This document shows, piece by piece, positions 1 to 56,945 of a DNA stretch of 59,599 bases; the first letter of the stretch is position 1, and every line of letters begins with the position of its first letter. A program made the translations under genes and the position numbers. Below the pieces are notes generated by a model. It was not told the origin of the DNA, did not search any database, and saw only the letters and a program-made list of their open reading frames with translations. This DNA comes from Thermodesulfobacteriota bacterium (GTDB lineage Bacteria > Desulfobacterota > Desulfobacteria > Desulfobacterales > B30-G6), in assembly GCA_039714495.1 (NCBI GenBank), contig JBDLJD010000004.1, positions 1-59,599 on the forward strand, written 5' to 3'.

Positions 1-224
1 CGGCAATAAAACTGTCTGTACGTAAAGAGGAAGGCGAGAACGATGAATTAGTTCATCAAAATTTTTGTAAAGCCCTAATACGCCATAGACTTCATCTGTA
101 ATTTTCACTACGGCGTCATTCCCATTAGAGGATGGATGGGCATATGATCGATATTCGAGCCTTTGGATTTACAAATCGAATCACCGCGCATCGACCGTTT
201 CAGCGATGTTTAGACTTCAGCTGA

Positions 225-320
225 ATTATGTCAACTCATTGAATTTTCATATTTTTTGAGCTCTGTTACACAATCACAACCTGAGGGGTGCCTCCAGAGA
301 TGATGTAATCACCGCTTTTC
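225..320. repeat. Copy 1 of a ~100 bp tripartite element flanking the hydrogenase pair
   Basis: ATTATGTCAAC (225-235), TCTGTTACA (262-270) and ATGATGTAATCACCGCTTTTC (300-320) recur at 3879/3917/3955 with near-identical spacing (+37/+75 vs +38/+76). Confidence 0.85.
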
Positions 321-420
321 AGCGGCAATTAATTTTAGAATACTTGTTTCGAAATTTTCCACAGGAAGCCTTTCCAAGTTGTGAGAGAAAGATATGATAA
401 ATATGCAACTATCTTATGAA

Positions 421-1722
421 TCAGTGTGTAGCACAGCTCAGACAGGGGTCCAGCAGTCGTACGCAGCGGCCGATAAGGTGCTCCCCCTCCGGAGAAATAG
501 TGTCGCCCTTCAGATATTTCTGGGACAAATCCCTGATCAGCAAATTGATATAGGCATTGTTGAACTGGGTGGCCACCAGGAGACGCAGGTTTTCAAGCAC
601 GCCCTTGCGGATAAGATAGCCGTGAACAAGGATGCCCCGAGGGGCTTCCAGCACACCGAGGCCGCGGCCATTGACCTCGAAGTCCGGTTGGATGCCGATT
701 TCTTGCGGGTCTACCAGATCCAACAGGGCAAGTATGCGTTTTGCCGCCCAGAATATTTCCAACAGCCTGCAGATATCCAAACTCTCCAAGCTCAGTGAAG
801 TTCGATCCTGAAGCTGTCTGCTCAATGAAAACTTCCGGACTTCCGGGTCTGCCAAAAATCCGTTATCAAGAAAGCTGCGGGAAAGCGGCCCGACCATCAT
901 GATTCCCTCGGGGAATCCAAGGTGGGTGAGATAGGGGATTTTGGACAGTGTCCAGTCCGTTTTCATTTCGGTGACCGATTCTTCAAAAGACTCCACATCG
1001 AAAGATTCCATCAGTGTCCCCTCGCGATTGAAAGCCCTGAAAGCACCTGTTTTGCCGTTGGGCTCAAAAGCCAGGTAATTGAGCTGGATATCCTTTGGAA
1101 AGGCGATGACAGCGGGATTGTGATAGGATTGGCCGACTGCGATGATCAGCTTTTTTGCTCGTTCCTTAATGTCGGCGGCCATTTGCCGGACGGCGGCCAA
1201 GTTCTTTTTTGTAGGAGGGTTTAAAAAATGACCGATACCCATGGAAACAGGATGGATAGCTCTCTTGCCCAGCAACGTATTGATATTAAGACCTGCTTCC
1301 CTGATACTAAAAGCATCTTTCGATATTTCCGGGTGCTTTGCAGCTATCTCAAATATCCCGCCCTGAGCACCGACAACATCTGGAAGGCTCAGGAAGAAAT
1401 AGCTCAATGAGTGGCTGCTGATCCATTCTCCTAGTACCATGATATCCCGAAGGTATTCAACGGAGAGGGGGACATCCAGGTTCATGGCACTTTCGATGGC
1501 CCTTAAGCTGGCCACTTGGTGGGAGCAGGAACACAATCCGCAAATTCGTGAAATAAGGTGAGGTACATGCTCCACCCGGCGGCCCTTGAGAAAACGTTCG
1601 AATCCCCTGAACTCCTGGATTAAAAACCTGGCCGCCCTTATACGACCATTGGATATCTCGATATCGATATTGGCGTTGCCTTCGATCCTGGTGGCTTTTT
1701 TGAACAGCAGCTTACGGCTCAT
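421..1722 (-). CDS. [NiFe]-hydrogenase large subunit, group 3-like, without C-terminal extension
   Basis: TRIEG, RGFE, L1 RICGLCSCSH, EAPRG, VATQFN, L2 DPCLSCATH followed directly by the stop; 4-nt ATGA overlap with the upstream gene. Confidence 0.95.
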   Translation of the reverse strand: MSRKLLFKKATRIEGNANIDIEISNGRIRAARFLIQEFRGFERFLKGRRVEHVPHLISRICGLCSCSHQVASLRAIESAMNLDVPLSVEYLRDIMVLGEWISSHSLSYFFLSLPDVVGAQGGIFEIAAKHPEISKDAFSIREAGLNINTLLGKRAIHPVSMGIGHFLNPPTKKNLAAVRQMAADIKERAKKLIIAVGQSYHNPAVIAFPKDIQLNYLAFEPNGKTGAFRAFNREGTLMESFDVESFEESVTEMKTDWTLSKIPYLTHLGFPEGIMMVGPLSRSFLDNGFLADPEVRKFSLSRQLQDRTSLSLESLDICRLLEIFWAAKRILALLDLVDPQEIGIQPDFEVNGRGLGVLEAPRGILVHGYLIRKGVLENLRLLVATQFNNAYINLLIRDLSQKYLKGDTISPEGEHLIGRCVRLLDPCLSCATH

Positions 1723-3584
1723 CTCAACCTCGATGTATTCTTGATAAAGCTGGGATCAAAGCTCAGGGAACTGCCGCCCTTCATGCGTAACATCCGGACA
1801 GTGGCCCTCAATGTATCCACCTGCAATCCGGAACGAAGCGCCATGCTGTCGATCACCAGATCTTCGTACATGGACCCGGCATTGATTTTGTTAACCGCTT
1901 TCCGCGTCGGCCCCCGGCAGCCCCAGCAGAGCAGACCGCCCTGAAGGCAAGCCGCCCCGCATCCCCCTTTCGTAATCAGGCCCAGGCACAACACCCCCTG
2001 TGAAACCAGACATATGTCTCTGTTGAGAGCATTGCCCGGAAAGAACTGCATGTCGGCAGGTGCCAGCTTTTTGGGTTTTCGGGAGCATTCAGCACAAACG
2101 ACAGATTTTATTTTCGCTGTGTTTTCACCTCCCTGCAGTTCATCAATCAGACCTTTTGCTAAAGATGCCTGGGGAGGACAGCCGGGAATAAAATAGTCTA
2201 CCCTGATGACATCATCCAGCTTTCTAGCCTTGCGGAGCAGTTCGCCTGACAGGTTCTGAGCGTTATCGTTGTCCATTTTTTTCCGGGTTGACAGATAGTA
2301 AGAAAACGGATCAATGGTCTGCCCATAACTTTCCTCGAGAAGCTCCTCCAACTCGAACTGGTTGGCCATGGCAGGTATGCCGCCAAAGGTCGCGCAGGTT
2401 CCCCATGCAGCCACAAATCGACTTTTTCTGCGTATCTCCAGAAGGAGCTGCTCATCCTCCCTGGTGCGAACGGCGCCGTCCACCATAGCGACATCCACGT
2501 CTTGAAAGGAGTCTGCATCCATCAACATGGGGCAATAGATGATATCCGCATTTTCCGTGAGAGCAGTTAGATCCGACTGGTTTTGAATCAGGCCAGCAGT
2601 GCAGCCGCCGCAGGTGCTCAGCGAGATCAGAGCAATACGGACTTTCCTTTCCTTTTTGAATATTGGTGTAATGATGTGGCGGGCAATCTCCAGGGAACGT
2701 TCCGGTGATTCAAGGGCCACAGTGGTGGCACGCAGCCGGGTAATAAGCACCTTAACGATAAAGAAGGCCAGTTCAGAATTTGCTGACAGGCTTTTTTTCA
2801 GTTGCTCGTTGCTGATGGCCAACAGTTGTGTATCGCTGGTTGCAACGGCTGTGGCCATACGTGCATTGCCGGTGACCAGGGCCATTTCACCGAAAAAATC
2901 ACCGGCTTCTAGTCTATTCAATAAGATTTCACGTCCAGAGGCTTCTGTATATATGTCGACATTACCTTTGACGACAATATACATTACTTCGCCCTCATCC
3001 CCTTCTTTGAAAATAAGCTCTTCCCTGTAATAGGTAACGACCGTTTGATCACTGGCCCACGGAAAATTGGCCGGTAGCCTCGGGTGGACTATTTCAGTGT
3101 CGGGCGAAGATGGTCTTTCGAAGGATTCAGTTCGGGTAAGGCTGTCACTGCATTTTTCTTTTTCTGGGAATGGCAAAGATTCTGATGAAACAATAGACGA
3201 ACGGAGATAATCGTCAGACATGACGAGAAATCGCAGCAAACCGTTTGTTCTTTCGATGCGCCGGCACAAAGAGTTGATCAACTGAAGGATGACAGTTGTA
3301 TCATATTTAGTCTGGCTAAAAAAAGAATCGCGGTGGACGGCCAACAGCCTTGTGCGACAAAGGGCTATTGCCGTGGCAGACCTGGTCCGGTTGTCAATAA
3401 GGGCCATTTCACCGAAAAAATCGCCCTGCTCCAGGAGTGTGATGACAACCTTTTCTTCACCGCGAAGACAGCTAATTTCGATGGCACCGGACTGGATTAT
3501 GAACATACTGTTCCCGTGGGAACCCTGTTCAAAGATCACATCACCATGGCTGAAAACGGAGCCAAACAGATCTATATCGCTCAT
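1719..3584 (-). CDS. Fusion of two cNMP-binding (CRP/CAP-type) domains with a group-3 [NiFe]-hydrogenase small subunit (MvhG/HydD-like)
   Basis: Two cNMP cassettes (IFEQG...FGEMALIDNRTRSAT; IFKEG...FGEMALVTGNARMAT), then CGGC, GTC, GCPP, CAEC, CL..QG.LCLG, GCG..C, CWGCRG Fe-S ligands. Confidence 0.92.
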   Translation of the reverse strand: MSDIDLFGSVFSHGDVIFEQGSHGNSMFIIQSGAIEISCLRGEEKVVITLLEQGDFFGEMALIDNRTRSATAIALCRTRLLAVHRDSFFSQTKYDTTVILQLINSLCRRIERTNGLLRFLVMSDDYLRSSIVSSESLPFPEKEKCSDSLTRTESFERPSSPDTEIVHPRLPANFPWASDQTVVTYYREELIFKEGDEGEVMYIVVKGNVDIYTEASGREILLNRLEAGDFFGEMALVTGNARMATAVATSDTQLLAISNEQLKKSLSANSELAFFIVKVLITRLRATTVALESPERSLEIARHIITPIFKKERKVRIALISLSTCGGCTAGLIQNQSDLTALTENADIIYCPMLMDADSFQDVDVAMVDGAVRTREDEQLLLEIRRKSRFVAAWGTCATFGGIPAMANQFELEELLEESYGQTIDPFSYYLSTRKKMDNDNAQNLSGELLRKARKLDDVIRVDYFIPGCPPQASLAKGLIDELQGGENTAKIKSVVCAECSRKPKKLAPADMQFFPGNALNRDICLVSQGVLCLGLITKGGCGAACLQGGLLCWGCRGPTRKAVNKINAGSMYEDLVIDSMALRSGLQVDTLRATVRMLRMKGGSSLSFDPSFIKNTSRLR

Positions 3585-3878
3585 ATCAGTATCTTTTCAA
3601 ATATCATTCCAGGCAGTATCGATAGCAAGCGAAAACATATTAAATAGGTCGAGGCCTATCGAATATCAAGTTGTGATAGAGAGATCCTGCAGATATCACC
3701 TTGCCCAGAAAGCTTTGTTTTCCGAGCATATCTACAATGAAATCCCTCCTGGTACCGTTACAAATACCAATTTTCTGACAAAAATGCAAAAAAGGGCAAA
3801 TCCCACAGAATTGAAGTTGAGCTTTTTAACAAAAAATCTTCAAAAAACAATTGTTACTGCAAACTATAAATTTCCTGT

Positions 3879-3975
3879 ATTATGTCAACCAACTGATATT
3901 TATTGAGATCCAACCTTCTGTTACAAAACCTCCAATTTGGGATAGCCGCCAAGAATGATGTAATCACCGCTTTTC
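3879..3975. promoter_or_regulatory. Copy 2 of the tripartite element, upstream of the hydrogenase operon; includes a TTGACA -35-like box on the minus strand
   Basis: Same three blocks as 225-320; the minus strand reads TTGACA-16nt-TAGTTT pointing at the 3584 start. Confidence 0.6.
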
Positions 3976-4154
3976 GGCCATGGTCGAATTAAAGAGATTT
4001 TTTTGCAAATTCTCGATTGAAACCATCGTGATCAGCCAAGGATTGATATCATGAAAATACAACTGAACAGCCATCTCTATCCGGTTTTTTTAATATGTAT
4101 GCTATCAGCAAGTTGCCTATAATAACGATTGGAGGCATATAGGATTGATCTCTA

Positions 4155-4529
4155 TTATTCTTCGCCAAACCATTGCATTGCTTTTTCCATTAAGTTGAAT
4201 ATTTCTATTTCCAGAGGAAAATCATTTATCAGCATTGATTTTTGTATCATTCTTAATAGTGTGGTCTCTAACTCAGAAAAGGCAAGGAGTGCTGTTTTCC
4301 CACCTTTGAGTTTTTCAGGTAAATATTTGACACCATAGACAATCTGCTGGAAGTCTTGATTGGATATCTGAGCAAGGTTAGCCATTCTAAAATCCCATAA
4401 GACTTTCAGTGTTGGGTTGTTTCTATAAAACCGTTGGTAGACTGCTAAACCTTCTTGGAGTGTTGGTTCTCCGGTAACTGTGAATATTGTCAATCGGTTA
4501 TTATGGTCAATTTCAAAAGTAACAGGCAT
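4155..4529 (-). CDS. Small STAS/SpoIIAA-like hypothetical protein
   Basis: 124 aa; 'VLWDFR', 'KTALLA', C-terminal 'IFN.MEKAMQW' pattern of SpoIIAA-like proteins. Confidence 0.6.
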   Translation of the reverse strand: MPVTFEIDHNNRLTIFTVTGEPTLQEGLAVYQRFYRNNPTLKVLWDFRMANLAQISNQDFQQIVYGVKYLPEKLKGGKTALLAFSELETTLLRMIQKSMLINDFPLEIEIFNLMEKAMQWFGEE

Positions 4530-4600: not shown

Positions 4601-4969
4601 CTAAATTATGTTCAATACGCTTTTCACTACCACTGAAGAACGACGGTAAACGCCATAACTGATTAGCCCTGGTATGGGAATCTCGCGAAAGCGCACACCG
4701 ACCGAGGAACCCGTTTGCATCACGAGGTCGTCCGCGTTGAGCGTCACTGCTTCTTCGTACTCGGTTGCATCATCCACACCGGCCATGACGATGATGCCCT
4801 CGATCCCATCCGGGTCTATCATGGGTATGGCCGAAGTCGCGATGCTGCATTCGCACGTGTAGGCGTTGATTTGGTCCAAATCCGATGGAATGGGTAACTC
4901 ATAACGCCCTCCAAGACACCCTAGAAAAACCAAAGAGGTACAGATGGCAATCAATAGTGCTTGCTTCAC
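4601..4969 (-). pseudogene. Probable 3'-truncated secreted lipoprotein
   Basis: AGGAGG RBS and GTG start, lipobox-like VFLG-C, a 'DDATE...DL...VGVRF..IPIP' extracellular-domain start, then an abrupt switch to AT-rich sequence near 4660. Confidence 0.5.
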
Positions 4970-5272: not shown

Positions 5273-8200
5273 TTACCGCCGATGCCATAGAGAGTGACGG
5301 ATTTGCTCTGTTTTGGCAGACGGTGGGAGTCCGAAAGCGGCATCGAGTGTTGTTCTGCAGCGTTCGTAAATCGATAGCGCATCGGCATGGCGCCCAAGTT
5401 TTTGCAGGCAGCGCATGAGGCGCTGATAGGTTACCTCTGACAAATCGTCGATTTCCAGGCTTCTCAAGTAACCGTACGAGGCCTGTTCCCATTGATCCAT
5501 CGATTCAAGATGGTTGCCGATAAAATAGACTGCTTGTAAATATTTGTTCCGAAATCGCTCACTTGGCGAAACAGCCCAGGTTTGAAGCGTGTCTCCGGCG
5601 AGAAACATGCCGTTATAATGGGCCAGCGCTTTTTCGATCAGGCTTATTTGTGTATCCAATGCCTGCGACTTGAAGGCATTCTCCGCCATTGACAGCAGGC
5701 TCTCGAAGGCCCAACAGTCCACCCAGCAGTAAGACGGGTTCAGGCCTAACTTGCCGTTCTGGACTTGCACCACCTGGTCGTTGTCCAAATAGCGCCTGAG
5801 CCTGTGAAGCGTTGTTGTCAATGCCCGGTCGGCTTTGTCCCCTTCAGCATCGGGCCACAGGCTGTCGCAGATCTGGGCTCTACCCACATTTCTGCCGCCC
5901 AGGGCGATGAGAACCTTTATCAGTTCCAAAGGCTTCTTCTGCGCCTTGGTGGCGTATCTTATGGGGTTGTCATCCCTTAAGATGGAAAAGCCGCCAAGTG
6001 TAAATATTTTCAACTGCCAGGGCCAATTTTCAAGTGCAATCGGTGGGGGATCCAGGGTTAAACAGCGTTTGCGAATATAGGTGGAAACATAGTTCGTTTC
6101 AATACCATGCTCCAAGGCGACCGCACAAAGCCGAGCAACGTTTGAACGAGAATCGATCATGTTGTGATAAAGGCCGATCTCTTTGCCCAGCGCTAAAGCC
6201 TCACGCAGCAACCGACGGCAGGCATCGAGATGTTCCTGTTCCAGAGCAAAACGGGCTTTAAACATGAGCGCATGAAAAATCAAATGTTTCGTTCCGGTTA
6301 ATTGGGAAAGGTGGAGGGCTTTGTCGAGATGATCTTGGGCTGCCTTTTGCTCTCCTGTATCGTGAAGGACTCTGGCGTTCAGCAAGTGGCAGAATATGGT
6401 ACTAAACTGTGACCCAACGTCAATGCTGGCTTTCAATGCAGATGTTGCATAAGCCTTTGTCTGGTTCAAATTTCCTGATTGAAGCGTTTCAAGAGACTTG
6501 ACATAATCTATCAGGCCCTGGTCCAGAGGCATGGCATTTTTCAGTGAAATCGCATTATCCTCAAAAAGGGTCCTGGCCGCCTCGTACTCTTCATGGATCA
6601 ATGCACTTTGGATGCCATGGCCGACCATGATATTGTTTAAAATAATGAAGCCTGTTTTTTTTGCAATCGCAAGGCCTTTATAAACAACATCGATGCACTT
6701 AGCATGCATGCCGACATAGCAATAATAAAATGAAGAGATGGTTGCATGAGCAACAACTGCTATCGCTTCTTTTGAATCCGGCAAATCATCCCATGAAGAA
6801 GGCCTGAGTAAATCTATTATTTGAGCGGCCCTGCCATAGTTGCCGGTCAGCAAAAAATAGTGGACAACGTTGTTGGTGATCGACACCTTGGTGCTCAAGT
6901 CCAGCGAACTGGAAATCAGGACCAGTGCCCGATCAACCCAGGATTCGATATGGGGATAGTCCATTTTGCGGTGCACCAAGGCGATGAGCATACCGGAAAC
7001 CACCTGCCCTTCGATGTCCCGGCTTGGAAATTGCCTGTATTTGTTCACTATTTTTTCAAGAACCTGAATCCAGAGATCAAAGCTTGAAAAGTCCGCCATT
7101 CTCAAGAATATGGCCCTGATAATAAAGGGCCAGCAGAGGAAAAGCCCAAACGTATCATCATGCTTGCGGAACGTGCCAAATGCCTTTTCGAGAAAAGACA
7201 GACTGCCCTTCGGATCAAACGGCAACCGAGCGATTCCCATCCAGGCTTCCAACCATGGCTTCTCAGCTACCACTGATTTGGGCAGCGTCTCCAACCATTG
7301 AAAGAGGGACTGATTTCTACCCTGCTGGATCATGGTAAGGGCGTGTTTCATGATGAGTTCGGTCAATGCACCCCATGCCTGAGCATCATGCAAGAGTTCG
7401 GCGGCAGCGTCTGCATCGCCTTCCTCGGTCAGCACCTTAGCCGCCTTGAGCCGCGAACCATTAAGCTTTGTATCAGATAGCCTACGTTTTGCCTGGGAAA
7501 TTAAAAACCCCCTGTACAGTGGATGGAACTGGTAATATAGTCGTTTGCGTAAACGACGCTCTGTGAAACGGTTCTCGCGGTGTAATTTCGCAAGAATTTT
7601 TCCAGCATTTGCGTTGCCGGTAAGGTTTTTGGCCATAACATTCGTCATGTAAGGCAAAAACGCAGATCTCAGCATAAAATCCTGGATTTCGGGAGGTTCA
7701 CGTTCAAAAACCTCTTTGGCAAAATAATCGAGTATTTCCTGGGGGGTAAAGCCCTGAATCCATTGCCAGTCCAGATCTTCCGGATCAGCTTGTGCCAGCA
7801 TCAACAGAAGCCCGACGGCCCACCCGCCAGTGGCCTGGTGCAGTTTTTGGATAATTGTTTTAGAGATCGAATTTCCGGTCTGTAAGTGCGCAATTCCAGC
7901 TGATTCCTCCAGAGTCAATTTAACCGCATCCCAACCGATTTGAAACATCTTCCGATTGGCTAAAATCCTGCTGAAGACTGCCGGTGGGCGCTCCCTGCTG
8001 ATAACGATCCCTGTGATTCCTTCAGGCAGAATCGATAACCCCTTGTTGACGATCTTATGGGTGATGGATTTTGGTTTAATTTGTTGGTAGTTGTCCATCA
8101 CGATGACAATCGGCTTTGGAAGGCGCTGGTAGACGGCTTCGAAGAAACGCAGTGAAAAGGCATCTATGCCTGGCATGAATTGAGGGTTAAAGGATGGTAT

Positions 8201-8488
8201 TGGTATGCGTTTTCGAGGACTGGCGCGGTTGACCGCCAGCCTCAAATAGTGGAAAAAAGTAGCAGGGTCGCTATCCCTGGGATCGATCTGATACCAGACG
8301 CAGTTGAGATTATGGGATTCTATATAGCTGGCTATAAGCGTTGTTTTGCCGGCTCCTGCAGGAGCAGAAGTCCATATGACAGGGTTGCGGCGGGCATCAT
8401 TGAGAAACTGAAAGGTCCGCTTTCGTTCAAAAACACTATACAGCATAGGTCGACTAATTTTGTTAATCGGCTCGATAGATGTGCTCAT
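5273..8488 (-). CDS. MalT-like STAND ATPase / TPR / winged-helix + BTAD (SARP-type) transcriptional regulator
   Basis: P-loop APAGAGKTT, MalT-like 'TGGW..GL' and 'HPLYR' segments, C-terminal 'LGGF..', 'LWPD', 'LHRLR', 'VDCWAFE' and BTAD helices. Confidence 0.9.
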   Translation of the reverse strand: MSTSIEPINKISRPMLYSVFERKRTFQFLNDARRNPVIWTSAPAGAGKTTLIASYIESHNLNCVWYQIDPRDSDPATFFHYLRLAVNRASPRKRIPIPSFNPQFMPGIDAFSLRFFEAVYQRLPKPIVIVMDNYQQIKPKSITHKIVNKGLSILPEGITGIVISRERPPAVFSRILANRKMFQIGWDAVKLTLEESAGIAHLQTGNSISKTIIQKLHQATGGWAVGLLLMLAQADPEDLDWQWIQGFTPQEILDYFAKEVFEREPPEIQDFMLRSAFLPYMTNVMAKNLTGNANAGKILAKLHRENRFTERRLRKRLYYQFHPLYRGFLISQAKRRLSDTKLNGSRLKAAKVLTEEGDADAAAELLHDAQAWGALTELIMKHALTMIQQGRNQSLFQWLETLPKSVVAEKPWLEAWMGIARLPFDPKGSLSFLEKAFGTFRKHDDTFGLFLCWPFIIRAIFLRMADFSSFDLWIQVLEKIVNKYRQFPSRDIEGQVVSGMLIALVHRKMDYPHIESWVDRALVLISSSLDLSTKVSITNNVVHYFLLTGNYGRAAQIIDLLRPSSWDDLPDSKEAIAVVAHATISSFYYCYVGMHAKCIDVVYKGLAIAKKTGFIILNNIMVGHGIQSALIHEEYEAARTLFEDNAISLKNAMPLDQGLIDYVKSLETLQSGNLNQTKAYATSALKASIDVGSQFSTIFCHLLNARVLHDTGEQKAAQDHLDKALHLSQLTGTKHLIFHALMFKARFALEQEHLDACRRLLREALALGKEIGLYHNMIDSRSNVARLCAVALEHGIETNYVSTYIRKRCLTLDPPPIALENWPWQLKIFTLGGFSILRDDNPIRYATKAQKKPLELIKVLIALGGRNVGRAQICDSLWPDAEGDKADRALTTTLHRLRRYLDNDQVVQVQNGKLGLNPSYCWVDCWAFESLLSMAENAFKSQALDTQISLIEKALAHYNGMFLAGDTLQTWAVSPSERFRNKYLQAVYFIGNHLESMDQWEQASYGYLRSLEIDDLSEVTYQRLMRCLQKLGRHADALSIYERCRTTLDAAFGLPPSAKTEQIRHSLWHRR

Positions 8489-55340: not shown

Positions 55341-56945
55341 ATGGCTGCCTCATCGACACATCAGGCGCACAAAAAAAATCCGGCGAGGCGCCGTGATTCG
55401 CTGTTCATCGCACTATATCTCCGCAACTTCGGGGCCAACCTGTTCAGTTTTGCGGCCATCATTCTCCTGAATACGTTCACACCGCTCGACTTTTTCAAGT
55501 TGCGGAAAGGATTCTTTTTTATGCAGGGGGGCTGGATGGTGTTCCTGCTCTTTTTCATACTGACGAACCTGCTGGTGCTGGCCCTTCAGTATTATTTCCA
55601 ACGCCCGATCGCCAGGTATTCAAGCGCCCTGCATCGAGATCTGGAGATAGACGTACCGCTGGAAAACAAGGCGCGGAAACGCTTGCTGAACCTGCCTTTC
55701 ATCATTGCACTGGTCGATTTGACCATGTTTATCATTGTTCCTGTCACCCTCATGTCAACGCTCAACTTCTTCAAGGGCATTCCCATGGGGATGAGCCTGT
55801 TCATACTTTTCAGGACCTTCATGCTCGGGCTGATCGCCGCCTGGCTGTCCTTTTTCCTCATCGAAGACTATGCACGCAACAAACTGGTACCCCTCTTTTT
55901 TCCCAAGGGACGGCTCACATCTACCCCAGGCGTCATACGGCTCTCCATTCTGCGAAGGATCCGGCTGCTCAACATGGCCGGGACGCTGAACCCTTTGGTT
56001 CTTCTGGTCGTGACCGTCGGGTTCATCGCGTGGGAGGTCGAGGGGACGGGCATATCGGCAGCACTTTTGAGCCGAGAGATACTGGTCTTTACCCTGCTGC
56101 TGAGTGCCGTATTCCTGGCTATCGTCATCAAACTGAATTACCTGGTGAGCAACTCGATCATCCAGCCCATCAACAACATGCTCGAGGTCATCGAACAGGT
56201 GAAGGGCAGCGATTTCAATCAGCGGGTGAGGGTTATCTCCAACGACGAAATCGGCATTCTAGGCGACACCGGCAACAATATGATCCGGGGCCTGGCCGAC
56301 CGGAAACACATCCGGGACACCTTTGGGAGATATACCACCCCTGAAATCAGGGACCATATATTGAGCGGTAACGTTCCCGTGGACGGCGAGCTGCGAACCG
56401 CCACCCTGCTCTTTTCAGATCTGCGCGGTTTTACTGCTTACGTGGAGGATAACCCGCCGGCAGAGGTAATCAGAAGCATGCGTGCCTATTTTACGGCCAT
56501 GCAGCGAGCAATCCGGCAGCACAACGGGTTGGTGCTGCAGTATGTGGGGGATGAAATTGAAGCGGTGTTCGGGGTGCCCATCAAGCAGCCCGGGCATGCG
56601 GACAAGGCCGTGCAGGCCGCCCTGGAGATGCGTAAAAGCCTGGACCGGTTGAACGTTCAAAGGACCGACCGGCGGAAACCGCCGTTTGCGCACGGCATCG
56701 GCATCTGCACCGGCCAGGTGTTGGCCGGCATCACGGGAAGTGAAAACCGGCAGTCCTACACCCTGATCGGCAGTACCGTTAATCTGGCATCGAGAATAGA
56801 GGAATTGACCAAGAAGGTGGGCTGCGACATCCTGATCAGTGAAGAAACAGTGGCAGACCTGTCCCAAGTATACCAGCTAAAAGAGGAATATCCACAACCT
56901 GTCAAAGGATATTCGAAGCCGGTTAAGGTGTATCGGCTTTTATGA
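55341..56945 (+). CDS. Membrane-bound class III adenylate/guanylate cyclase with HAMP domain
   Basis: Several TM helices, HAMP (DEIG.L), LFSDLRGF, YVGD, G.G...G, VNLASR. Confidence 0.92.
   Translation: MAASSTHQAHKKNPARRRDSLFIALYLRNFGANLFSFAAIILLNTFTPLDFFKLRKGFFFMQGGWMVFLLFFILTNLLVLALQYYFQRPIARYSSALHRDLEIDVPLENKARKRLLNLPFIIALVDLTMFIIVPVTLMSTLNFFKGIPMGMSLFILFRTFMLGLIAAWLSFFLIEDYARNKLVPLFFPKGRLTSTPGVIRLSILRRIRLLNMAGTLNPLVLLVVTVGFIAWEVEGTGISAALLSREILVFTLLLSAVFLAIVIKLNYLVSNSIIQPINNMLEVIEQVKGSDFNQRVRVISNDEIGILGDTGNNMIRGLADRKHIRDTFGRYTTPEIRDHILSGNVPVDGELRTATLLFSDLRGFTAYVEDNPPAEVIRSMRAYFTAMQRAIRQHNGLVLQYVGDEIEAVFGVPIKQPGHADKAVQAALEMRKSLDRLNVQRTDRRKPPFAHGIGICTGQVLAGITGSENRQSYTLIGSTVNLASRIEELTKKVGCDILISEETVADLSQVYQLKEEYPQPVKGYSKPVKVYRLL

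Follow-up and report, generated by a model that had tools for sequence, protein, structure and literature searches.

A group 3-like [NiFe]-hydrogenase with two cyclic-nucleotide-binding domains fused to its small subunit: a candidate second-messenger-gated enzyme

To our knowledge, hydrogenases are regulated by transcription, by maturation or by redox or O2 inactivation, and no second messenger has been described as acting directly and allosterically on a [NiFe] enzyme. The DNA analysed here (the window, 59,599 nucleotides) comes from a Thermodesulfobacteriota bacterium of the Desulfobacterales (NCBI GenBank assembly GCA_039714495.1, contig JBDLJD010000004.1) and was found to be a complete contig, C4. 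At its extreme left start, on the minus strand, lies a gene pair for a putative [NiFe]-hydrogenase whose small subunit carries two cyclic-nucleotide-binding (CNB) domains; an earlier note, made from the sequence alone, had already remarked that the pair sits at the window edge. It is considered somewhat probable (roughly 55%) that the pair encodes a soluble two-subunit [NiFe]-hydrogenase allosterically gated by cyclic AMP or cyclic GMP (cAMP/cGMP).

The best or near-best solved relative of both subunits is MvhAG, the F420-non-reducing hydrogenase of methanogens (group 3c, PDB 5odc). However, the family to which the pair belongs is only ~30% identical to it, falls in a separate clade and scores far under the cut-offs of the NCBIfam VhuA and VhuG models. 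It differs further in its 310-residue CNB-CNB extension, in having neither linked MvhD/HdrABC genes nor a large-subunit C-terminal extension, and in having EGN in place of EGH. A known case of a CNB fold beside a hydrogenase is HoxI. The statement in the earlier note that some group 3b operons carry a stand-alone gene for a cyclic nucleoside monophosphate (cNMP) domain was not supported in detail and could be traced to HoxI only. HoxI is a single-CNB-domain protein of the Ralstonia eutropha soluble hydrogenase (group 3d). One paper describes a cytoplasmic group 3 [NiFe]-hydrogenase with which a CNB-fold domain is physically associated and, citing Burgdorf 2005, places HoxI in a group 3b cluster (PMC12319191). 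Whereas HoxI is a separate protein, two CNB domains with complete cNMP cassettes are here fused to the small subunit, in a lineage without diaphorase.

Hydrogenases wired to signal transduction are also known from group 2, and the large subunits of group 2b sensors lack a C-terminal extension, like those of the present family. Group 2b is classed as histidine-kinase-linked and group 2c, putatively, as diguanylate-cyclase-linked, that is, wired to a nucleotide second messenger (HydDB table). These enzymes have a group 2 core and separate kinase or GGDEF output genes, whereas here a group 3 core is covalently fused to second-messenger receptor domains. The PAS-domain sensory [FeFe]-hydrogenases of the HydS type are likewise fused to a small signalling domain and are encoded near PP2C-type phosphatases and kinases, but they belong to a different metal-site superfamily, use a different signalling domain and carry it at the C-terminus. 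The most similar CNB domains are those of PKA-R, PKG and Bd1971, where the CNB domain is fused to or paired with the enzyme that it controls. By contrast, the effector here would be a metalloenzyme with an Fe-S wire, which is unprecedented as far as the literature was searched, and the CNB domains are separated by a linker and not packed as in PKA-R. A full-text literature search found no description of a CNB-fused hydrogenase subunit, in keeping with the earlier note, which knew of no characterised double-cNMP fusion. The family is apparently undescribed, though databases hold many members under generic names ('F420-non-reducing hydrogenase small subunit' at JGI and 'cyclic nucleotide-binding domain-containing protein' at NCBI).

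In the gene pair, the stop of the small-subunit gene and the start of the large-subunit gene overlap by 4 nt (ATGA), an overlap which is identical in 41 of the 44 related loci that hold both genes. The small subunit matched PF00027 (cNMP_binding) over two stretches at 159 bits (cut-off 27.5) and PF01058 (Oxidored_q6) at 84 bits, and the large subunit matched PF00374 (NiFeSe_Hases) at 90.6 bits, the last two also above their cut-offs. As expected of a [NiFe]-hydrogenase heterodimer, L1 and L2 motifs were found in the large subunit and Fe-S Cys ligands in the small one. The reading of the first gene as a 621-aa open reading frame (ORF) joining two complete cNMP domains to an MvhG-like small subunit was borne out by Pfam, by the cassettes and by 12 Cys aligned to 5odc_E, and the large subunit coupled to it by the overlap does have intact L1 and L2 motifs.

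It had been asked whether the fusion might be absent from homologs or be an assembly chimera. In the domain-architecture search that had been proposed, PF00027 and PF01058 occurred together in 119 of the best 120 homolog clusters (90% identity level), which are ~600-640 aa long and 40-94% identical; only P0012, a 343-aa fragment encoded on a contig of 1.2 kb, departed from this. When metagenomes were scanned with just the hydrogenase part and the matches were passed through ORF calling and BLAST, 57 family loci were obtained. The N-terminus lay inside the contig, with the tandem CNB present, in 43 of these, while the other 14 comprised 11 cut by a contig end, two frame-broken with a CNB piece just upstream (L120, L134) and one mis-called (L153); no clearly unfused locus was found among the 57. 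There is a sharp gap between small subunits of at least 38% identity, which are fused, and those of 35% or less, which are unfused, 252-329 aa long and paired with large subunits of no more than 21-31% identity. Clustering of 1.84 billion proteins at 50% left ~19-20 full-length fused representatives. Regarding the assembly itself, a 7325-nt public contig from the probable source run spans window positions 258-4200, and the CNB/small-subunit junction (~2651) is bridged in contigs of two other studies, X6 (1709-2714) and X3 (2509-2765). The 119 clusters, the 43 fused loci and the two independent bridging contigs together rule out an assembly chimera. As judged from the sequences, the fusion is conserved and obligate in a hydrogenase clade that stands apart from others.

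Some variation was seen around this plan. P0118 has the order FHA-CNB-CNB-small subunit (726 aa), FHA being the only further identified domain among the best 120 clusters, and P0082 additionally carries PF25562. P0154 and P0159 are single-CNB forms which look like a deletion between the two FGE motifs, and P0135 (313 aa, 42% identity), encoded on a 13-kb contig, is a small subunit that looks unfused. The outgroup small subunit P0340 has a different N-terminal extension of 288 residues. Tandem-CNB proteins of ~270-330 aa (P0257, P0260, P0266, P0268-P0271, P0280, P0286, P0290, P0295 and P0315) match fusion residues 5 to ~290 at 34-40% identity; these are either shortened members of the family or stand-alone paralogs, which might represent a split form. 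No fused kinase, cyclase, GGDEF or HTH output domain was found in the family.

In AlphaFold2 (AF2) models, each CNB domain consists of a beta-roll and a long C-helix, as in CRP. The beta-roll of domain A spans residues 9-84 and its C-helix 96-136, with a predicted local distance difference test score (pLDDT) of ~90. In domain B (pLDDT ~85) the C-helix, residues 270-304, runs into the small subunit and ends ~20 residues ahead of the proximal-cluster CxxC pair. The linker between the domains has a pLDDT below 50 at residues 134-166, and its length ranges from 30 to 84 residues (median 59) in an alignment of 89 family members, mostly ~40% identical to the window's protein. Each domain has a canonical phosphate-binding cassette (FFGEMAL...RSA in domain A), and the beta-roll and cassette of a PF00027 pocket (G-E-x-A-L ... 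R-[STA]-A) were found in both. In domain A, FFGE and R68 are each kept in 89 of the 89 members, S, T or A at position 69 in 87 and A70 in 88; in domain B, GE is kept in all 89, R242 in 85 and A244 in 83. The cassette Glu contacts the ribose and the cassette Arg the cyclic phosphate, and both predicted CNB domains keep the residues defining cyclic-nucleotide binding. Their closest solved relatives are PKG, PKA-R and the cAMP-binding EAL enzyme Bd1971 (E 1e-15 to 1e-22, cassettes aligned), the PKG and PKA-R matches lying at 1e-20 to 1e-22 with cassettes in agreement.

The tandem as a whole is another matter, and the comparison with the PKA regulatory subunit made in the earlier note did not hold. 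The CNB domains are not contiguous, and Foldseek placed PKA-R over both of them only at a root mean square deviation (rmsd) of 12-20 A (TM 0.13-0.19), and the PKG tandem likewise at 12-20 A. Because a variable linker parts the domains and the superposition is poor, a PKA-R-like tandem is a loose analogy only.

The cassettes also bear on the nature of the ligand. The CNB folds could bind NAD(P)H or another nucleotide or metabolite in a HoxI-like manner, and so provide reductive activation or a site for a cofactor or substrate in place of second-messenger control; the lack of a diaphorase gene leaves room for such a built-in nucleotide site. This is regarded as very improbable, as both cyclic-phosphate cassettes are complete and nearly invariant across sequences only 40% identical, the best solved matches are true cNMP binders, and a CNB fold carrying neither flavin nor any other redox group would not by itself transfer electrons to NAD(P). 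It would also leave the enrichment of adjoining cyclases, described below, unexplained.

The hydrogenase core is that of group 3. The small-subunit module aligned with MvhG (5odc_E) in phmmer at 174 bits with all 12 Fe-S Cys in register, each of which is kept in 88-89 of the 89 members; going by the MvhG structure, these presumably hold three [4Fe-4S] clusters. MvhG is the best solved relative of this subunit (172-174 bits; Foldseek 5odc_E, TMt 0.56, 32% identity), and those of the large subunit are 7t2r_D (200 bits), MvhA 5odc_F (198) and HoxH 5xf9_D (173). The NCBIfam scores were 180 bits for VhuG (cut-off 450) and 97 for ShyD with the small subunit, and 174 for ShyA (cut-off 700), 165 for VhuA (cut-off 800) and 115 for HydA with the large one. 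Both subunits are assigned to group 3 by these matches, far under every NCBIfam equivalog cut-off.

A quick maximum-likelihood tree of 57 large subunits was midpoint-rooted, without curated HydDB references, and its VhuA-like and 3b-like labels come from NCBIfam scores. All 31 fused-operon rows fell on one separate branch with a Shimodaira-Hasegawa-like approximate likelihood ratio (SH-aLRT) support of 100 and a stem of 1.74 changes per site, apart from the VhuA-like rows of related genomes (340-901 bits to the NCBIfam model) and from the 3b-like rows. The sister group has weak support (85), with a warning that long branches meet here; it comes from metagenomes, is unfused, and its large subunits likewise terminate at His. 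The family may thus be described as a well-separated clade within group 3, nearest to Mvh/3c-like enzymes at ~30% identity, and a deep position as sister to 3c is possible. In this quick tree it did not fall inside the MvhA/VhuA clade, and none of the surveyed loci had the linked mvhD and hdrABC genes of group 3c. Neither was an assignment to group 3b or 3d obtained, with low ShyA and HydA scores, HoxH below MvhA and no diaphorase or sulfhydrogenase partner genes; nor was any sequence affinity to group 2b or 2c seen, the best matches all being group 3.

These relationships invite comparison with a conventional Mvh-type (3c) hydrogenase which docks in trans on an MvhD/Hdr complex and in which the CNB domains give only minor or occasional modulation, an alternative that overlaps with gating. 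The closest solved relatives are indeed MvhA and MvhG, and the bacterium's own genome has eight MvhD (FlpD) domain genes, four of them with one in-frame TGA and therefore possibly encoding selenoproteins, and no other group 3 hydrogenase. However, the surveyed loci are all devoid of linked MvhD or Hdr genes, a long stem separates the clade from VhuA-like sequences, and the family is present in only two of 40 relatives (the MvhD content of the rest was not searched). The strict retention of both CNB domains argues for a central role, and docking of this kind is judged improbable.

The catalytic motifs of the large subunit are strictly conserved. R[IV]CGLCSxxH, with the Leu of CGLC invariant, was found in 33 of 33 complete family large subunits, and in the same number DPCL[ST]CATH stands directly before the stop codon; almost every family locus encodes a large subunit of 431-435 aa. 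Lacking a C-terminal extension, the large subunit requires no maturation endopeptidase, a trait that it shares with H2 sensors and some group 4 enzymes. The motif ATR[IV]EGN is specific to the family and replaces the RxEGH of other hydrogenases in 38 of 38 readable family sequences, EGH being present in 19 of 21 outgroups. Both the EGN site and the Leu of CGLC adjoin residues important for proton transfer and gas access.

A missing C-terminal extension is a hallmark of the H2-sensing HoxC/HupV, and together with the EGN replacement and the invariant CGLC it would suit a reversed flow of information. By analogy with the group 2b/2c [NiFe] sensors and PAS-bearing [FeFe] sensors, the hydrogenase core would then be the input, and reduction of its Fe-S clusters by H2 would alter CNB conformation or cNMP affinity. 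The CNB module would sequester or release cNMP, or bind a cyclase, PP2C or CNB-kinase, and so reach a cNMP and Ser/Thr-phosphorylation network. HydDB already has a putative second-messenger-linked sensor class, 2c. Such an H2 or redox sensor is the main alternative to gating, but is considered rather unlikely. The extension-less large subunit is shared with groups 2b and 2c but is not diagnostic of sensors, because the His of DPCxxCxxH is the last large-subunit residue in some unfused group 3 outgroups too. Furthermore, the Fe-S chain retains all three clusters of a working Mvh-type enzyme, the core sequence is group 3 while the known sensors are group 2, and no output domain is fused to the CNB domains, which in characterised proteins are not known as anything but input modules.

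The surroundings of the pair bear on both the electron partner and the signalling role. The earlier note had seen no adjacent diaphorase, HdrA/MvhD, hyp or protease gene, and none was found within 16.8 kb to the right. In the gene-neighbourhood survey, no MvhD homologue or ferredoxin-type motif was detected among 173 neighbour ORFs (within five genes) on comparison with the genome's FlpD/MvhD domains. Such families were also absent from the best 25 of 143 families in a Pfam tally of 130 de-duplicated neighbour ORFs (within four genes, 44 loci), which was led by cNMP_binding (8), SpoIIE and Guanylate_cyc (4 each) and PP2C, Response_reg, GAF and ETF (3 each). No gene is kept next to the pair across relatives. 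ApbE, EtfB and EtfA genes follow the pair on the same strand in L008 (11448-14596) and L114 (2812-5988), and are the only recurring flavin or electron-carrier neighbours (2 of 44 loci).

A conventional partner operon just left of the window, which the earlier note had left open, is not in evidence either. Window positions 1-99 recur without a mismatch as the final 99 bases of contig C131, and C131 may adjoin on the left, though the join with C4 is uncertain because of the dispersed repeat at 200-330. The genes on C131 are those for a metallophosphoesterase, Ham1, PEPCK, an MFS protein, a DUF6178 protein, a carboxyltransferase, an SLT-domain protein and a 168-aa ORF without family; no redox gene was seen among them, and no partner operon was found downstream of the pair in relatives.

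The neighbourhoods were enriched roughly tenfold in class III cyclases and other CNB proteins. Across 19 non-redundant loci with at least 4 kb of flank (~225 kb), seven cyclase genes were found in five loci and eight CNB genes in seven, with at least one of either in 10 of the 19, compared with 13 cyclase and 19 CNB domain matches in the 4.6 Mb of the bacterium's own genome. Because its neighbours are so enriched, the enzyme appears tied to cNMP signalling. Cyclases stand directly downstream on the same strand in L101, L107, L135 and L142. In L101, the closest relative with context (large subunit 81% identical), this is a REC-cyclase; three cyclase genes surround the pair in L107; and a zinc-ribbon-cyclase-AAA-TPR gene lies downstream in L135. 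A cNMP made on other signals and read by the hydrogenase would fit, because these adjoining cyclases carry their own sensors (REC, zinc ribbon, AAA-TPR). Elsewhere a CNB-Ser/Thr kinase (L123, L126), two SulP-STAS-CNB transporters (L146) and a PP2C (L144) were found. A linked histidine kinase or diguanylate cyclase was present in single loci only and is not conserved: L102 has a CNB-PilZ protein with a PAS hybrid kinase two genes away, and L008 an MMPL-CNB-GGDEF protein with hypD and hypE, the only one of 44 loci with a GGDEF protein next door.

Parts of this picture would suit an H2 sensor, namely the absence of any linked electron-transfer partner, the recurrence of PP2C/SpoIIE, GAF, REC, CNB-Ser/Thr kinase and MMPL-CNB-GGDEF neighbours, the N-terminal FHA domain of P0118, and the rare and accessory occurrence of the family, which is often true of regulators. 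On the other hand, no single signalling partner is conserved across the loci.

Gating of the hydrogenase by cNMP is favoured because the protein carries no fused output domain, its catalytic and Fe-S residues are strictly retained, sensor-bearing cyclases are frequent neighbours and CNB domains are not known, in any characterised case, as other than ligand-input modules controlling an attached or bound effector. The second-messenger interpretation of the earlier note thereby gains from the conserved fusion, the kept cNMP residues, the lack of a linked partner and the cyclase- and CNB-rich neighbourhood, and loses its PKA-R analogy. The mechanism that we infer is of a self-contained cytoplasmic [NiFe] enzyme of a distinct group 3 lineage, the small-subunit N-terminus of which acquired two CRP/PKG-type cyclic-nucleotide receptors. 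In the direction of control proposed, the CNB domains would be the input and the hydrogenase the output. Class III cyclases, often encoded next door, would make cAMP and/or cGMP, which would bind both cassettes and move the CNB-B C-helix that leads into the first small-subunit strand. This movement would act as an on/off switch for H2 turnover or for the exit of electrons from the Fe-S chain, and a coupling path through this helix is plausible from the model. As for the sign of regulation, analogy with other CNB-regulated enzymes makes it most likely that the CNB module is inhibitory when empty and that cNMP lifts the inhibition. For maturation the enzyme would depend on Hyp proteins, encoded elsewhere, but not on an endopeptidase, and electrons would be exchanged with an unlinked partner, either a soluble carrier or an MvhD-domain protein.

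A number of observations weigh against gating by cNMP. The tenfold enrichment derives from home-built profiles, one background genome, phylogenetically non-independent loci and a hand-summed flank length. Cyclase and CNB genes are both missing from nine of the 19 long loci, among them the window's own, where none lies within 16.8 kb. The ortholog (64% identity) of the cyclase that adjoins the pair in relative G412 (L101) is found here mid-contig on C27, and no DNA similarity was found between the downstream region here and that of G412. Position 243 of CNB-B, beside the cassette Arg, is Met in the window's protein and mostly Thr or Ser in the family; Met also occurs in six of the 89 aligned members. 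The AF2 model of the whole fusion has a predicted TM score (pTM) of 0.50 and no confident inter-domain arrangement, so that neither a relative placement of the domains nor a docking surface is claimed and the coupling path is an inference. CNB folds of other proteins bind other ligands. Lastly, the recurring PP2C and Ser/Thr-kinase neighbours, the large subunit without a C-terminal extension and the change of EGH to EGN beside a conserved Glu all fit a sensor.

In the boldest reading, which is given an even chance, this would be the first [NiFe]-hydrogenase with catalysis directly switched by a nucleotide second messenger. The two receptors, hard-wired to the Fe-S subunit, would gate the making or uptake of H2 in the cytoplasm, either cooperatively or by calling for two ligands (cAMP AND cGMP). 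Sediment anaerobes could then open and close an H2 'redox valve' in seconds with gene expression unchanged. This would be a new layer of control over H2 metabolism in the sulfate reducers, Chloroflexota and Nitrospirota of anoxic sediments, and a concrete metabolic output for bacterial cAMP/cGMP signalling, the targets of which are mostly unknown in such organisms. For synthetic biology and spectroscopy, it would offer a compact, chemically switchable hydrogenase that needs no endopeptidase or partner subunits. In the reverse and less conventional version, the protein would be an H2-dependent cNMP buffer linking ambient H2 to the cAMP/cGMP pool. A group 3 lineage hidden by current annotation is in any case now marked out, which should be of interest to specialists in hydrogenases and in bacterial second messengers.

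The family is sparsely distributed. Orthologs (78-81% identity) were found in two of 40 related genomes (same genus 0 of 3, rest of the family 1 of 11, rest of the order 1 of 26), and no family member was found in 400 genomes sampled across the phylum with the large subunit as query. The gene pair is a rare accessory unit on account of these counts. Members occur in at least three phyla, source names pointing to Desulfobacterales, Nitrospirota and Chloroflexi; the contig scan, which was dominated by the generic CNB pattern, gave two full loci. The only other hydrogenase of the genome is represented by a group 1-like large subunit with one in-frame TGA (G000:C44:7382-8869), presumably a [NiFeSe] enzyme, with hypD close by (C44:2984-4024). 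Since the genome holds hypD and a second hydrogenase, Hyp maturation is taken to be available.

Table 1. Positions of the hydrogenase genes, their domains and motifs, and flanking features in the window.
Feature	Position	Strand	Details
Small-subunit gene	1719..3584	-	621 aa: CNB-A, linker, CNB-B, then MvhG-like Fe-S small subunit
CNB domain A (predicted)	3315..3554	-	residues ~11-90; PF00027, 79.3 bits; third-best PF00027 match in genome
Inter-CNB linker, variable	3060..3209	-	residues ~126-175, predicted disordered
CNB domain B (predicted)	2784..3038	-	residues ~183-267; PF00027, 88.3 bits; best PF00027 match in genome
Small-subunit module	1722..2651	-	residues 312-621; 12 conserved Cys, three Fe-S clusters (presumed), conserved C-terminal tail
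Large-subunit gene	421..1722	-	433 aa, [NiFe] catalytic subunit, PF00374
EGN site	1680-1694	-	large-subunit residues ~10-14
L1 nickel-binding motif RICGLCSCSH	1519..1548	-	large-subunit residues 59-68
L2 motif DPCLSCATH	424..450	-	large-subunit residues 425-433, protein end, no C-terminal extension
Dispersed short repeat downstream of operon, at contig break	200..330	.	matches on other contigs
AT-rich region upstream of operon, presumed promoter region	3585..4154	.	570 nt, G+C 0.37-0.43; contains dispersed-repeat copies

Promoter and terminator scans of the window gave nothing above shuffled controls, and the Rfam scan gave zero matches. Further copies of the dispersed repeat lie in the upstream flank at 3875-4130 and 3675-3860, and positions 262-323 and 3917-3978 are 74% similar over 62 nt in direct orientation. 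Copies were also found on at least nine other contigs (C3 twice, C86, C140, C189, C192, C248, C23, C26). The contig break falls at the left copy, and many public contigs have loose ends at 254-320.

Upstream of the operon and on the same strand, a 1071-aa STAND-like regulator (AAA, MalT-type TPR, Trans_reg_C/BTAD) is encoded at 5273-8488 (-). Between the two are ORFs of 124 aa (4155-4529) and 122 aa (4601-4969) without family matches; neither these nor the regulator are kept beside the hydrogenase in other loci. At the far end of the window, a 559-aa open frame contains a class III adenylate/guanylate cyclase domain at 56397-56939 (+), which lies 53 kb away from the hydrogenase and is one of the 13 in the genome.

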